This document shows positions 14,662 to 18,838 of a stretch of DNA of 64,000 nucleotides, in pieces; positions within the stretch are counted from its first letter, which is position 1; every line of letters starts with the position of its first letter. Source of the stretch: Escherichia coli (GTDB lineage: Bacteria > Pseudomonadota > Gammaproteobacteria > Enterobacterales > Enterobacteriaceae). The stretch lies in the NCBI RefSeq assembly GCF_046105845.1, contig NZ_CP151004.1. One strand, written 5' to 3'. The notes below the pieces were generated by a model. That model worked only from the letters and a program-made list of their open reading frames with translations. It searched no databases and had not been told where the DNA came from. Position numbers and translations under genes: made by a program.

Positions 14662-16758
14662 TTAGCGGAAATTGACGCTACGGTCGCTGGTCATGTCATA
14701 CAACTGGAACTTACGCCCAAGTTGCTGACCACCGTCACGCGTCAGCGGCGTCCAGCCAATTGCCGCACGGCTGCGTGTCGGGCCAGACGAGAAGAGATCC
14801 AGCGGTACAGAGACATACACGCCTTTGGTAAAGTCCCCTTCGCCGTACTCCTCTTTCGAAACATTCGTGATCGTGGCATAGCCACCCACCACCACGCCGC
14901 TATCAAAGCGTTTGGCGATCTCCAGCGTGCCGCCTTTATCCCCTGCCAGATACTGCCCGACGCTCGCTTTCACTAACACATCCTGAGCGAAAGATGGCGT
15001 CCAGTATGCGGTCAGATGTCCGGTTTTCACGCTGTAGTCGGTGAATTTCATCATATCTTTTGCGCTACGCCAGTCGCGCTGTTTAACGTAGTTGGCATCC
15101 AGACCAAACGCCCAGTTGCTGTCCAGCGGGCGATACAACACTTCTGCCCCCGCACCGCCAAACATGGTTTCGAGATAACCACCGTAGACCTGACCGTAGA
15201 AGCCGTTGCCCAGATGCTGGAAGTAGTTGGCTTGCAGGTTATTCACATAGACATCGTTCTGCACATACTCGCGCACATGGGTACGAACGCGCGGTAAGTG
15301 CGAGTCCTGCGGCGGGTTGGTGTAGTTAAACTTGTCGTAGTTGTTGGCAAGATTTGCAAACAGGCTGCCGGTGGTGAGCAGATGGTCCGTCAGCCATACA
15401 TCCGCCGTTCCCATCACGCCCAGCTGATACATGTAAAAGTTTTCCGGGCCACCGACCGACTGGTTCAGCACCGGATCGATATGGAAATCAAAGCGTGATT
15501 TGTCGATATACCAGCCCTGCTCGGTGGACTGCGGAACCACTGGCTCGACGCGTTTTTGCGCCAGCGTCGTTTCGTGGCCCAACGGCTCTCCGCCGAGATG
15601 ATTTTTCAGGCTGGCGACATCGGTTTCCGTCGTCACCTGCGGCATGTTAAGGCGATTTTCCGTAATGCGGATCGTTTTGATCCCATCCGGCAGATCGTTC
15701 ATCACGATCCGATTAGCACGGATGATCCCTTCGCGCGAATCACGATATTTCACCTGCTCGCCGGTAACATACAGCGTATCGCCTTTCGCCTGGATCTGCG
15801 GATCGGCCAGTCCGGCGTTGTATTTCAACAGCGTTAACTGATTCGCCACCACCGAGTGCTGCAAAATGGCATCCTGCGGCTGCGGTTGATATTGCGGGCG
15901 GGCGTTATCGTTGTAAGACGGGCGCAGATCGTTAAAGTTGGTGCGCAACGTAACGCCAAACATAAAGGTGTTGCCACGTTCATAGCTAAGGTTAACGTCG
16001 GCCCAATCGGTAACGCGATAAATCGCACCGACGTTAAACTTACTTTTTTGCTCCAGCTTCCCGGCAAAATCCTGCTGATAATTATTGCCTTCATACTCCA
16101 GTTTCAGGCGCAGCGGTTGCCAGGGCGTCTGGTATTCCACGCCGCCAAACAGTGAGGTCGGGCCGTGGAACATCTGGCTACCGTCGATAGATCCCGCCTG
16201 TTTGTAGCTGTTATCGCGATAGCAAAATTTATCACTGGCTGAACAGAGCGGATTTTTCACATTACCGCTGGTGCCCAGATATCCCCAGCCCAGGCCGAGC
16301 GTAAAATCGAACGGCCCCCAGGCTTTGCTGGCAACAAGATATTCCGCATCAAACAGCCCCGTACCGCCGATATCCCGCGCACCAACCGCCACTTGCGGCA
16401 GCCAGTAACTCTCTTCCCACAAACGCAGTTTGAGATCGAAGGCTTTATCTTTATACGTTTGATCACCAGAGAACGCTTCGACGCTGCTGTACTGCCGGGT
16501 GCGCACATCGGTATAGCGCAGCGTTGTTTCCAGCCACGGGAAGAGTTGCACTGAAGCTGAGTAATAACGGTACTGATCGTTATCGCGATAGTTCAAACTC
16601 AACTCCCCTTCCCGCGCCATGCGGGCGGTAGGCGTTTGTAATAATCCTACGCCACCGAAATCCGACTGCGACGGACCAATGGGCGCAGGATATGTTTCGC
16701 CGTAGCAAGCTGTGCTAATGCCCAGCGCCAGTAAGCTAAGCAGATGTCTTTTTTTCAT
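14662..16758 (-). CDS. yjbH: Outer-membrane lipoprotein of the yjbEFGH exopolysaccharide-associated operon
   Basis: 698-aa ORF with signal/lipoprotein N-terminus [20 protein letters not shown]; last gene of the operon. Confidence 0.85.
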
Positions 16759-17495
16759 TATTGAGGTATCCGCTGCGTCAGAGTCTGAAGAATGTCGGCG
16801 TTAAGGGCATCAGGCGTCTCACTCCAGACGGAGTCCGCGAGGCCAACATAAATAATGCTGCCGGGCATCGGCTCTACGTGACGCTTGTTCCAGTAAGCCA
16901 CCGGCGCTTTTTGCGTGCGTCCGTCCGGGTAAACCACCCACGCGTAGCTGCGATCCGCACCGCTGAGCAGGTTCTGGCCGGAGAGATAGCTCGCCACGTC
17001 GCGACCTGGAGTGAATGGCTGCTTGCCAGGACGGCTGATAAGCCCGAACAACGTGACCGTGGACGGCGGTGGTCCGACCCACAGCGTGTAGTTACCCTGC
17101 AACGGCGGGTTACCGCGTTCGGCAACGCGGACGATATCGGGATCAAGATTGATTTTTTGCCTGCCCGTCACTTTCAACGCCTGAATTTGCTGGCGTAAGG
17201 CGTTAATCGCAGCGGCATCGTCGGCGCTGGAGTCTGCGGCCAGTTCTGCCAGCCGTGTCAGCAACGCCTGCTGCTGACGCAATGCTGCCGCCGTTGCCAG
17301 CTCTTCGCTAATCACCGCACCAGGCCACCAGCTGTTTGCCAGCCGCGGTTGGCCTACCAGATCGATTAAATGCTCTGCGCCCGTTAGCGTCTTGGCCTCA
17401 CTGCTGCCATTGCTGAACACCTTGACGGTTCCTGCTGCGAAGACCGATGACGCTCCCACACTCAAAAGCAACGCGACAATAGTTTGTTTAATCAT
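16758..17495 (-). CDS. yjbG: Periplasmic protein of the yjbEFGH operon
   Basis: Start at [20 protein letters not shown] (245 aa); 1-nt overlap with yjbH start. Confidence 0.8.
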
Positions 17496-18130
17496 TGTTT
17501 TGCCGCCTTGATGAGGGTGGTTTTCACCGGGAAATAATCCGCGCCGAGATACTGTTCCGACTGGCGAATTTGCCCTTCGCTGTCGATCCAATAGCGGTTA
17601 TGCCAGCGCGCCTGGTCGGTGGAGACGTTTTCGTCCAGCACGCGAACCGGAGTTTCATCGCTGCCGACTTTGACGGTATCGGTGCCATCCCATTTGAAGA
17701 CTGAGCGTGCGGTGGCGTAGCGTACCTGCTGGTACTCGGTCCAGCCCATCGTGCGCGTCCAGGTTGCACCATCAACAATTTGTGCGGGTTTAATCAGCGG
17801 GTCGGCGGCAAGGTTATTCACTTCAATCAGGTTGTCGCCGCCAAGCAAAGTCTTCACCAGACGACCATGTTGTGTGACGAGAGTGGCCTGATCCTGAGTG
17901 ACCCATTTTTGTTGTCCGTCTTCAGCGAAGGCCAGCACCACAAACAATTGCGGCCCGCCATTAAGCTGCATGTACTGGCTGGCGTAGGGCATATTTTGAA
18001 TATCATCGTCCGTCAGCTGTACGCCTGGCGTGCCGAACAGACTGTCCCACAGTGAATTGCCCAGCTCTTTAGTCGTGGCTGAACAGGCCTGTAATAGCAG
18101 GCAGATAAGAATGAGTGCAGGTCGCTTCAC
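17492..18130 (-). CDS. yjbF: Lipoprotein of the yjbEFGH operon
   Basis: Probable GTG start at VKRPALILICLLLQACS (lipobox LQAC), about 212 aa; 4-nt overlap with yjbG. Confidence 0.7.
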   Translation of the reverse strand: MKRPALILICLLLQACSATTKELGNSLWDSLFGTPGVQLTDDDIQNMPYASQYMQLNGGPQLFVVLAFAEDGQQKWVTQDQATLVTQHGRLVKTLLGGDNLIEVNNLAADPLIKPAQIVDGATWTRTMGWTEYQQVRYATARSVFKWDGTDTVKVGSDETPVRVLDENVSTDQARWHNRYWIDSEGQIRQSEQYLGADYFPVKTTLIKAAKQ

Positions 18131-18242
18131 GACTCTTCTCCAGAGGGGCAGAATAACCACACCGGAGTGTGGTTATGGTAAATCCCTTCATATTTCAAGC
18201 CACAGATGCAATGACCCGAATTATTTTGGGATACATACTTTA

Positions 18243-18485
18243 TTACTGGGTACTGGTGGTCGTGGTTGTTGTGGTCCCGGTATTAGAACCATCACCGCCA
18301 CCGGTTGCCGCGAGCGCGACACCCACCGCCGAGCTTACGGTGCTGACGCTGGTCGCGGAGGAACTCCCCGCCGAAACCGACGTTGCTGCCGACCCTGCCG
18401 CTTCGCCCACCTGTACAGGTGCAGCCCACGCAGAAGTCGCCGCAAGCGCAGATATGGCAAAAATGCCATACAGAACTTTTTTCAT
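18243..18485 (-). CDS. yjbE: Secreted low-complexity Ser/Thr/Gly/Ala-rich protein
   Basis: 80-aa ORF; signal peptide [21 protein letters not shown]; ends in [15 protein letters not shown]. Confidence 0.8.
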
Positions 18486-18793
18486 AACAATTTCCCTTCA
18501 TTGAATGAATGGAGATTTACCCAAAAACATTTCGGGCGGGATCGAGTATACACAACTAAAGCATGCGAATTACGGTGTGGGGAATTAGCGATGGGGTTTT
18601 AGGATAATTGGAATGAATATCAAATATAAGTTTCAACTTATATATAAATAAGATTAAAAATCAAAAAGTTAAAATAGAATCAAAAATAATCAACCTACGT
18701 ATTTTCCGAAATCAATCACGATTAAAAATTTATTTTAGGATTAAACTCACAGCATGATTTCCGTTAAATCACAGACAAGGGGATTTATCTGAT

Positions 18794-18827
18794 AAAAAAT
18801 GCCGACATAACGTCGGCATTTTTATTA
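18794..18827 (-). terminator. Terminator downstream of pgi
   Basis: Hairpin atgccgacataacgtcggcat flanked by A/T runs on both sides. Confidence 0.55.
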
Positions 18828-18838
18828 AGGTTATTTAA

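Follow-up and report, generated by a model that had tools for sequence, protein, structure and literature searches.

Introduction

Hairpins downstream of papA and fimA, which encode major pilins, together with the rplL–rpoB attenuator, act as internal leaky terminators that set subunit stoichiometry, and REP-type elements, such as those between malE and malF, stabilise mRNA between cistrons. Hairpins of the C(UUCG)G/UNCG type were reportedly described in intercistronic regions and in terminators by Tuerk and colleagues in 1988 and by d'Aubenton-Carafa and colleagues in 1990. In the ABC importer operons of cellulolytic Clostridia, terminators past substrate-binding-protein genes are reported to set subunit stoichiometry (PMC9045158). 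Closer to the locus considered here, the gene overlaps of the yjb/gfc family have already been noted and interpreted as translational coupling, and GfcB binds GfcC in a 1 : 1 ratio (PMC8592465).

The yjbEFGH genes lie on the minus strand of a 64 000 nt stretch of Escherichia coli DNA (hereafter the window), with a hairpin, termed HP2, in the spacer between yjbE and yjbF (Table 1). On balance, comparison of this element between species suggests that HP2 is probably a weak (leaky) intrinsic terminator and 3′-end stabiliser, which would set a yjbE > yjbFGH ratio, with yjbF, yjbG and yjbH being plausibly coupled in translation.

Organization of the yjbEFGH operon

All coordinates given for this operon in an earlier note on the same DNA were confirmed. 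The first gene, yjbE, starts with ATG, is preceded by a conserved AAGGGA Shine–Dalgarno sequence, and encodes a conserved protein with a signal peptide. A conserved promoter-like block lies further upstream, indicating that yjbE is the first gene in the transcript. The yjbF start codon is GTG in 79 of 80 loci, and no strong Shine–Dalgarno sequence is found ahead of yjbH. A longer yjbF frame of 222 aa, opening at a GTG inside the hairpin (18160), was rejected because conservation marks the GTG at 18130, together with its GGAG, as the start, and because in other species the frame upstream of it is interrupted by REP insertions. A separate yjbF promoter 3′ of the hairpin was likewise set aside, as the gap to the yjbF start does not seem long enough to accommodate both a promoter and a leader.

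Table 1. Features of the yjbEFGH locus in the window and terminators of distant homologous operons
Feature	Position	Strand	Description
yjbE	18243–18485	−	80-aa secreted Ser/Thr/Ala/Gly-rich protein, Thr run at C-terminus
yjbF	17492–18130	−	Lipoprotein, PF11102; 212 aa from a GTG start, matching K-12 b4027
yjbG	16758–17495	−	GfcC-family periplasmic protein
yjbH	14662–16758	−	Outer-membrane beta-barrel protein, PF06082
Promoter-like block AGTTGTGTATACTCGATCCCGCC	18535–18557	−	Conserved; candidate −10 TATACT at 18545–18550
Shortened ERIC/IRU-like dispersed repeat	18182–18238	−	Fills first half of spacer; imperfect hairpin fold
HP2, AUAACCACAC-UCCG-GUGUGGUUAU	18153–18176	−	10-bp stem on mRNA strand, C(UNCG)G tetraloop
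U-rich tail UUAUUCUG	18149–18156	−	Counted from stem GC core
yjbF Shine–Dalgarno GGAGAAG	18135–18141	−	5′ of conserved GTG at 18130–18128
yjbF stop/yjbG start overlap	17492–17495	−	ATGA, 4 nt
yjbG stop/yjbH start overlap	16758	−	TAATG, 1 nt
L212 terminator			GCAACCC-UCUU-GGGUUGC-U9
L214 terminator			GCAACCU-UGUU-AGGUUGC-U9
Dickeya L213 terminator			AAGGCCAC-UUCG-GUGGCCUU-UUUUCUG
L208 terminator			UAACCGUUGC-UCAC-GCAACGGUUA-UAUUUUUG

The two overlaps that the earlier note had described are exact in the window and are conserved in approximately 80 Enterobacteriaceae. That between yjbF and yjbG measures 4 nt in 69 of 79 loci and 1 nt in a further six, with the yjbG/yjbH junction showing 1 nt in 61 of 77 loci and 4 nt in five. 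The paralogous gfcBCD genes possess the same arrangement of a 4 nt followed by a 1 nt overlap. The stop/start junctions from which translational coupling had been suggested are, as such, present, retained amongst species and shared with the paralogue, and coupling of yjbF, yjbG and yjbH is plausible from their sequences. Both microarray and RNA-seq tables display similar induction ratios for yjbE, yjbF, yjbG and yjbH, with all four genes co-induced, a pattern that fits an operon with readthrough, although such ratios do not address absolute levels.

The yjbE–yjbF spacer

The spacer between yjbE and yjbF measures 112 nt in the window, and the element within it bears no RefSeq annotation. The shortened repeat that occupies its upstream portion is probably of the ERIC/IRU type, elements with a unit of ~127 nt that are present in many copies per genome in transcribed intergenic regions; E. 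coli genomes carry the full 130 nt form, as seen in strain JA0266, at a median of 10 places each. This copy stands in place of a stop-codon hairpin of other genera, termed HP1, which harbours the yjbE stop codon within its loop. As the arm register of HP1 shifts between lineages, it was sought by searching each sequence for stems, against shuffled controls, and not through a single consensus structure (alignment A2), revealing a stem of 5–8 bp in 105 of 109 sequences, made up of 38 different arm pairs. Between HP1 and HP2 lies a nearly invariant UUAA.

With regard to its position, HP2 starts 15–21 nt past the yjbE stop codon in 75 of 81 loci (mostly 18 nt), and its end is 22 nt from the yjbF GTG in the window and 19–25 nt from it in most loci. 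The hairpin lies ~10 nt 5′ of the yjbF Shine–Dalgarno sequence in the majority of cases, a distance that grows to 46–82 nt where REP elements have inserted. Such REP insertions downstream, and ERIC insertions upstream, are tolerated provided that HP2 stays intact. An IS1 element inserted between yjbE and yjbF confers a phenotype of its own (PMC8117528), which shows only that disrupting the spacer matters.

Structure and conservation of HP2

The earlier note had reported a 20-mer hairpin at 18155–18174, which is indeed present, with a stem that extends further than was noted. Its inner nine pairs span 18154–18175, and this 9 bp form has an energy of −13.1 kcal/mol. With 9–10 bp and a 4 nt loop, HP2 falls within the dimensions of a terminator stem–loop (stem of ~5–14 bp, loop of 3–8 nt), and C(UCCG)G, with its C–G closing pair, is a UNCG tetraloop. 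Amongst perfect hairpins with stems of 9 bp or more and loops of 3–8 nt, only seven different ones exist in the window (11 entries, some hairpins being entered twice with two loop sizes, versus a mean of 1.9 in shuffles), the others being mostly terminator-like, plus one REP-like palindrome. The HP2 motif itself occurs once in the window and, of 5426 E. coli genomes, 5420 harbour a single copy. A search of 18153–18176 with the Rfam 15 covariance models returned no match, with a weak isrH hit (E = 0.51) adjoining. A phage or mobile origin was rejected, given that the sole viral-contig match is an E. coli yjbE–yjbF fragment.

Conservation was assessed in 81 loci from ~80 species, gathered by YjbF protein similarity and searched for hairpins with the loop left free. 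The stem, UAACCACAC/GUGUGGUUA, and the two U residues that follow are identical in every locus, and 23 of 24 positions are invariant. Only position 2 of the loop varies, with UUCG in 72 loci, UCCG in four, UGCG in three and UACG in two. Across these species yjbF varies at 20 of 21 four-fold degenerate sites, meaning that its synonymous sites are saturated, and no more than 88 of 207 second codon positions are unchanged; the stem of the nearby pgi terminator has been replaced repeatedly. The UNCG loop rule holds only on the sense strand and thus points to selection on the mRNA; judged by this pattern of substitution, HP2 is under very strong selection as RNA. The same 9 bp stem is found in Pantoea and Rahnella, where YjbF identity is 46 and 38 %, respectively, with the loop being AGUC in the former and AUCC in the latter; UNCG is not kept in these two genera. 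Unlike HP1 and the pgi terminator, the stem displays neither compensatory nor G–U changes, and this complete lack is not accounted for by a terminator model, which needs pairing and not a fixed sequence.

U-tract and terminator scoring

Intrinsic terminators carry a U-rich tract of ~7–9 nt directly past the stem. The E. coli tail contains five U residues in eight, of which only UUCU is left after the full 10 bp stem. In most Enterobacteriaceae loci GUGUGG is followed by UUAUUUUG or UUAUUUCG, compared to which the E. coli form is weaker, and it ranks amongst the weakest U-tracts seen. Stronger tails occur in a divergent metagenome locus (L090, UUAUUUUUUU) and in Pantoea (L204, UUAUUUUUUGUUUUUU), and U6–U9 follows the hairpin in distant homologues. 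A consensus terminator scan placed E. coli HP2 below threshold, and it was not called. A discriminant score of the d'Aubenton-Carafa type, which combines hairpin energy and T-tract, gives −11 to −20 for E. coli HP2 and −6 to −14 for the common Enterobacteriaceae forms, against +12.6 for the pgi terminator. By the same formula L090, L204, L212, L213 and L214 score +9 to +52, and values are positive for most of the distant homologues scored.

Intrinsic terminators have been reported to require a pause-like bubble-edge pattern, GS(N)7RY, with GC at −11/−10 and RU at −2/−1 as the bubble-edge dinucleotides (preprint 10.64898/2026.05.29.728758). The base of the HP2 stem and its tail read GG-(N7)-GC, which matches the looser GS(N)7RY and not GC…RU. 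As to transcript 3′ ends, the supplementary data examined for Adams 2021 Term-seq and for SMRT-Cappable-seq contain no yjbE/yjbF entry, and a literature search for a Northern blot or a coverage step at the locus found none.

Distant homologous operons

Homologous operons at a greater distance (30–36 % YjbF identity) harbour canonical terminators 3′ of the small Thr-rich gene (Table 1). In L212–L214 these end ~30–40 nt 5′ of the yjbF-like start, within a spacer of only 66–73 nt, which would seem to leave too little room past the terminator for a separate promoter and 5′ leader; downstream expression in these operons thus probably needs readthrough. Two further loci, L207 from a Nissabacter cluster and L215, are without a recognisable small gene and were set aside as uninformative. 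The paralogous gfcA–gfcB spacer contains a 10 bp hairpin.

The earlier proposal that the hairpin attenuates downstream expression, leaving the small YjbE in excess, stands in part: the UNCG selection pattern, the U-rich tails of most species and the canonical terminators of distant relatives speak for it, whereas the weak U-tract and sub-threshold terminator score of E. coli itself speak against it.

A probable leaky terminator between yjbE and yjbFGH

Under the leaky-terminator reading, part of the RNA polymerases would stop at HP2, releasing a short yjbE-only RNA whose 3′ end would be protected by the very stable hairpin, and the remaining polymerases would read through into yjbFGH. On these readthrough transcripts, yjbF would be translated from its weak GTG start, with ribosomes then being handed from yjbF to yjbG to yjbH via the ATGA and TAATG junctions, a handover that would keep F, G and H near equal and YjbE in excess. 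The conserved GTG start of yjbF and coupled translation of the three downstream genes agree with this scheme. At the 15–21 nt that separate HP2 from the end of yjbE in most genera, a terminating ribosome could partly suppress the terminator, and the readthrough fraction may also depend on how tightly yjbE translation tracks transcription. In E. coli reporters, termination efficiency is 0.12 to 0.8 at 17–18 bp from the stop codon, and maximal beyond 30 bp (PMC4824070). The hairpin, its conservation and loop pattern, the gene junctions and the canonical terminators at this site in distant homologues are observed; what we infer is that termination occurs, how efficient it is, that YjbE is in excess and that ribosomes tune the outcome.

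Alternative explanations

The sub-canonical U-tract in Enterobacteriaceae, the pairing of two adjacent hairpins around a nearly invariant linker, and the tolerance of neighbouring insertions would also suit a processing or stability element. Here, a putative cut in the single-stranded, UUUAA-rich linker or downstream of the hairpin, followed by differential decay, would set the ratio, with the UNCG hairpin either blocking 3′-to-5′ exonucleases on the yjbE fragment or shielding the 5′ end of yjbFGH from RNase E. We regard this as unlikely, albeit deserving of attention, because distant homologues carry full U-tracts directly past the hairpin, which an exonuclease block does not need, and because the fixed stem sequence is likewise not explained. 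The letter-for-letter identity of the stem in Enterobacteriaceae, Pantoea and Rahnella, which persists despite YjbF divergence and a change of loop, would be more readily understood if HP2 were recognised in trans, and its lack of G–U or compensatory changes and usual proximity to the yjbF Shine–Dalgarno sequence point the same way. That it serves as a trans-factor recognition site, forming a locus-specific riboregulatory element that gates the passage from yjbE to yjbFGH at transcription or translation, is nevertheless doubtful, and a sequence-specific site for a trans-acting protein or sRNA, working as a regulated switch on readthrough or on yjbF translation, is a shade more doubtful still. 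No candidate factor is known, Rfam offers no match, the motif is confined to one copy per genome in the yjbE–yjbF context and hence forms no regulon of sites, and REP insertions stretch the spacing to the Shine–Dalgarno sequence. Furthermore, the 5′ region of yjbE is without a conserved complementary segment; a pairing of an HP2 arm with CCCCACACCG in that region was considered and dropped, as it is not conserved.

As a perfect 9 + 9 inverted repeat whose 4 bp centre can vary freely amongst more distant relatives, TAACCACAC-N4-GTGTGGTTA could in principle be a DNA palindrome bound by a dimeric transcription factor, acting as an intra-operon roadblock. Within the Enterobacteriaceae, however, substitutions in the centre are confined to the N of UNCG, read on the sense strand, which is an RNA constraint and meaningless for a DNA spacer; distant homologues swap the inner stem for other paired sequences whilst keeping the U-tract, and E. 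coli possesses no second site, rendering this reading highly improbable. The chances of a thr-type leader-peptide attenuator, in which stalling on the yjbE Thr codons would refold the downstream RNA and alter termination, are slimmer again. The layout does recall one, in that a short ORF ends in 7–9 Thr codons, mostly ACC, ahead of a terminator-like hairpin, and its Thr run includes ACCAC in all 80 loci examined, with AACCAC in 64 of these; both sequences replicate a portion of the 5′ arm. Against this, the alternative pairing of the Thr run with the 3′ arm amounts to only 5–7 nt versus a 9 bp stem with a tetraloop, no conserved antiterminator or alternative fold was seen, YjbE is a signal-peptide-bearing protein conserved at the protein level, and the genes that follow have no link with threonine. 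This Thr-run/3′-arm pairing was rejected as a regulatory fold, being a trivial outcome of ACC codons. Finally, short palindromes do occur, yet a functionless, chance inverted repeat is barely credible for HP2: its near-complete invariance, set against saturated synonymous sites, already refutes it, and perfect hairpins of its size are rare in the window.

Implications

A terminator-like hairpin is kept past the small Thr-rich gene across the yjb/gfc family. Together with the proposed coupled, near-equimolar production of F, G and H, this predicts that YjbE/GfcA would be needed in much larger amounts than YjbFGH/GfcBCD, as would befit a substrate or structural subunit and not a machine part. 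The prediction offers a testable handle on the function of the envelope operons yjbEFGH and gfcABCD. In HP2, nature also provides a clear-cut example in which to ask why the sequence of a terminator-like stem can be fixed, a question that bears on the sequence rules of intrinsic termination. Were the recognition of HP2 by a trans-acting factor to prove correct, it would define a previously undescribed family of cis-regulatory RNAs in yjb/gfc-type envelope operons, kept unchanged in Enterobacteriaceae, Erwiniaceae and Yersiniaceae, and would imply a controlled YjbE : YjbFGH ratio.

Comparison with known systems

The thr operon attenuator resembles yjb in its short ORF with a run of Thr codons, followed by a terminator-like hairpin; yjb differs in having no competing antiterminator, in encoding a conserved secreted protein and in preceding genes unrelated to threonine. 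REP-type stabilisers share with HP2 a stable intercistronic stem–loop that would favour the upstream message, whereas HP2 is single-copy and locus-specific, with true REP-like and ERIC-like repeats having inserted beside it in some genomes. Similarity to the UNCG tetraloop hairpins extends to the C–G closing pair, the restriction of variation to N and the intercistronic location, but in Pantoea and Rahnella the same stem carries a non-UNCG loop.

The group 4 capsule operon gfcABCDE-etp-etk and, in Vibrio and Aeromonas, the wbfDCB-type operons (PMC8592465) are alike to yjb in gene order and in their 4 nt and 1 nt overlaps, and the ~106 nt gfcA–gfcB spacer similarly places a hairpin past a small Thr-rich gene. 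The gfcA–gfcB hairpin is unlike that of yjb in sequence and has a poor U-tract, with the yjb hairpin sequence being absent there. With regard to the internal leaky terminators, termination at yjb is predicted, its U-tract is sub-canonical in E. coli, and a stem sequence fixed across three bacterial families is unusual for this class. Nonetheless, the two share a common plan, in which a small exported product comes first, a hairpin with a U-rich tail follows, and the membrane machinery genes are then encoded with seemingly no room for a promoter of their own.

Operon layout and gene overlaps

The window is E. coli, with 99.8 % identity to strain 1190 in the stretch tested, and the segment occurs in 5420 of 5426 complete E. 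coli genomes. Sequence reading and frame translation confirm the coordinates of yjbEFGH, an operon downstream of pgi that is encoded on the minus strand. The short overlaps from which the earlier note had proposed translational coupling are indeed present, with ATGA common to the yjbF stop and yjbG start (4 nt), and the A of TAATG common to the yjbG stop and yjbH start (1 nt). Amongst loci of some 80 species retrieved through YjbF, the F/G junction is a 4-nt overlap in 69 of 79 and a 1-nt overlap in 6, and the G/H junction is a 1-nt overlap in 61 of 77 and a 4-nt overlap in 5, with the Kosakonia group displaying a 2-nt gap. Identical 4- and 1-nt overlaps connect the paralogous gfcB, gfcC and gfcD of K-12. 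Larson et al. (PMC8592465) stated that 1–4 bp overlaps occur at gfcB–gfcC, gfcC–gfcD and in homologous operons, proposed that stoichiometry is kept via translational coupling, measured near 1:1, high-affinity GfcB:GfcC binding, and pointed out a Burkholderia GfcC–GfcD fusion. Coupling of yjbFGH is a reasonable reading, already in print for the family; this half of the earlier note is correct, ordinary and not new. Unlike the GTG of yjbF, the start of yjbE is ATG, behind a conserved AAGGGA.

Upstream of yjbE are a conserved promoter-like block and two ATCCTA-containing boxes, the latter resembling the right half of an RcsAB box. The pgi–yjbE intergenic region also harbours a match to the enterobacterial sRNA STnc430, on the strand opposite to both genes and ending at the bidirectional pgi terminator hairpin.

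Features of the yjbEFGH region in the window
Feature	Position	Strand	Remarks
yjbH	14662-16758	-	frame translation
yjbG	16758-17495	-	frame translation
yjbF	17492-18130	-	GTG start, 212 aa, matches K-12 b4027 annotation
yjbF start codon	18128-18130	-	GTG in 79 of 80 loci, TTG once
Spacer hairpin	18153-18176	-	full stem
Shortened repeat	18182-18238	-	first half of spacer
yjbE	18243-18485	-	frame translation
Promoter-like block	18535-18557	-	AGTTGTGTATACTCGATCCCGCC
ATCCTA-containing boxes	18595-18611, 18732-18748	-
STnc430 match	18682-18830	+	Rfam; 89 bits, E = 2.5e-14
pgi terminator hairpin	18795-18823		bidirectional

Conservation of the spacer hairpin

The 20-mer hairpin reported at 18155-18174 was confirmed, and its stem on the mRNA strand is two pairs longer (AUAACCACAC-UCCG-GUGUGGUUAU); the spacer is 112 nt long, and 22 nt of it lie between the hairpin and the yjbF start codon. 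A scan of the window for perfect stems of at least 9 bp with loops of 3–8 nt returned 11 entries, where shuffled sequences gave 1.9 on average; as some appear twice with two loop sizes, these represent seven distinct hairpins, the others being mostly terminator-like, together with one REP-like palindrome. The stem UAACCACAC/GUGUGGUUA and the next two U residues are identical in each of the 81 loci that extend upstream of yjbF (those of the window and K-12, plus 79 fetched), and no other invariant run is as long in an alignment spanning the yjbE 3′ end to the yjbF 5′ end. Of the 21 four-fold degenerate sites in yjbF codons of invariant residues, 20 vary among these species and 17 show all four bases; second codon positions are invariant at only 88 of 207. 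The pgi terminator, approximately 600 nt upstream, provides an internal control, its stem having been repeatedly replaced in the same genomes (AUGCCGAC, AUGCCGGC, AAGCCGAUA, UACCGGC, GCGUCGC, AGCCUUCUC and others). On this comparative evidence, which is decisive, the hairpin is judged to be no chance palindrome.

In a search with an unconstrained loop, loop variation was confined to the second position (UUCG 72, UCCG 4, UGCG 3 and UACG 2). In a UNCG tetraloop closed by C-G, N is the sole base not used by the fold. This pattern is legible on the sense strand only and, since a DNA operator would not so constrain its central spacer, argues that selection on the hairpin acts at the RNA level. A terminator or exonuclease block needs pairing and not a fixed sequence, and the stem displays zero G-U intermediates and zero compensatory pairs across three bacterial families; neither function would account for its fixed sequence. 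Such fixity gives some room to a partner recognising the stem by sequence, an idea that we nevertheless consider improbable. Rfam returned no match to the hairpin, and no conserved complementary partner was seen in the yjbE 5′ region. The Thr-codon run was rejected as an arm partner, as its 5–7 nt copies of the 5′ arm are a consequence of ACC codons. The motif is unannotated and occurs once per E. coli genome; a metagenome search restricted to UNCG loops gave 120 matches, all of them flanked by a yjbE-like and a yjbF-like gene. With the loop free, the sole match amongst viral contigs (IMG/VR; L216, 13440-13827) is an E. coli fragment in which CA-rich low-complexity sequence is joined to the yjbE 3′ end, spacer and yjbF; the contig resembles a chimeric assembly or host DNA more than it does a phage-borne copy.

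Insertions in the spacer

On the yjbE side, half of the E. coli spacer is taken up by a dispersed repeat in shortened form, resembling ERIC/IRU. The full form has 130 nt and a median copy number of 10 per E. coli genome; it is found at this same position in strain JA0266 (L001, 583-712), in some 370 other genomes and in one Citrobacter locus (L032). REP-like palindromes (e.g. GCCGGGTAAGCG..CGCCACCCGGC) are inserted downstream of the hairpin, ahead of the yjbF Shine-Dalgarno, in roughly a dozen loci of Citrobacter and Enterobacter (L005-L007, L010, L011, L026, L034, L036 and L039-L041), lengthening the hairpin-to-Shine-Dalgarno interval from ~23 to 67–82 nt. Neither the ERIC-like nor the REP-like insertions disturb the hairpin. 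By itself, an IS1 insertion in this spacer results in colanic-acid overproduction and sedimentation resistance (PMC8117528), and the translation efficiency of yjbE shows one of the largest drops at pH 4.4 (log2 -3.34; PMC10746267).

In other genera a second hairpin precedes the conserved one, with its 5′ arm formed by the last yjbE sense codons, the stop codon in the loop and the 3′ arm 3–10 nt past the stop. Of 109 distinct sequences (alignment of loci L005-L200, from the last yjbE codons to ~10 nt beyond the stop), 105 form it with 5–8 contiguous pairs, against ~3.9 in shuffled controls. Its 38 different arm pairs (e.g. GUACC/GGUAC, GCACCC/GGGUGU, GUACUC/GAGUAC and ACCCGU/GCGGGU) demonstrate real covariation, and synonymous ACC-to-ACU changes are matched by downstream G-to-A changes. 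Between the two hairpins lies a UUAA that hardly varies; in E. coli the shortened ERIC-like repeat stands in place of the first.

Homologous operons outside Enterobacteriaceae

Representatives of distant YjbF clusters were traced to their contigs, with organism names taken from cluster members.

Hairpins following the small gene in distant loci
Locus	Organism or context	YjbF identity	Hairpin and tail
L204	Pantoea	46%	AUAACCACAC-AGUC-GUGUGGUUAU-UUUUUGUUUUUUG
L205	second paralog, Superficieibacter group	42%	AUAACCGC...GGGGUUAU-UUUUUUG
L210	Rahnella	38%	AUAACCACAC-AUCC-GUGUGGUUAU-UUUCCC
L208	adjoins wzc-like gene	36%	UAACCGUUGC-UCAC-GCAACGGUUA-UAUUUUUG
L212		35%	GCAACCC-UCUU-GGGUUGC-U9
L213	Dickeya	32%	AAGGCCAC-UUCG-GUGGCCUU-UUUUCUG
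L214		32%	GCAACCU-UGUU-AGGUUGC-U9

The inner stem of L208 covaries, with the outer pairs and U-rich tail retained. Since these loci and the K-12 gfcA–gfcB spacer (10-bp hairpin) also carry hairpins, the whole family, by sequence comparison, is characterised by a hairpin and U-rich tail following its small Thr-rich gene; exceptions are L206 (Serratia sp. DD3), with different hairpins lacking a U-tract, and L207 and L215, which have no small gene. For L212-L214 the terminator ends ~30–40 nt before the yjbF-like start in a spacer of 66–73 nt, a length that seemingly could not accommodate a second promoter and its leader, so that expression of the downstream genes probably requires readthrough. 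The Rahnella-type operon (L210, 565-1922) does not adjoin pgi and lies directly downstream of genes for a GerE/LuxR-type regulator (198 aa) and an EAL-domain protein.

A putative internal terminator

The hairpin most likely acts as a weak internal intrinsic terminator of yjbEFGH and, being very stable, would also shield the 3′ end of the short terminated product. It is read as weak because the Enterobacteriaceae tails (UUAUUUUG or UUAUUUCG; UUAUUCUG in E. coli) are short and interrupted. The stem base and tail read GG-(N7)-GC. A consensus terminator scan made no call at the hairpin, and a d'Aubenton-Carafa-type score falls below zero for the Enterobacteriaceae forms and above zero for most distant homologs and the pgi terminator. 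Of the 81 loci tabulated, 75 have a hairpin that begins 15–21 nt (mostly 18) past the yjbE stop. Reporters in E. coli gave termination efficiencies of 0.12 to 0.8 at 17–18 bp from a stop codon and a maximum beyond 30 bp, as the terminating ribosome interferes (PMC4824070); distance from the yjbE stop may add tuning in this way. On readthrough RNA, yjbF would be translated from its conserved GTG, and ribosomes would then be passed on via the F/G and G/H junctions, predicting YjbE >> YjbF ≈ YjbG ≈ YjbH.

The suggestion that the hairpin attenuates yjbFGH so that YjbE is made in excess gains comparative support short of proof; we infer from sequence that termination with YjbE excess is most likely. 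Literature on the locus yielded no 3′-end map, Northern blot or absolute expression values, and published tables give similar induction ratios for yjbE, yjbF, yjbG and yjbH. The element is of a known kind, an internal leaky terminator or stabiliser setting operon stoichiometry; this instance appears undescribed so far, and its letter-perfect conservation is unusual. A parallel in layout is gfcABCD, which, like yjbEFGH, combines a spacer hairpin after the small first gene with the same 4-nt and 1-nt overlaps.
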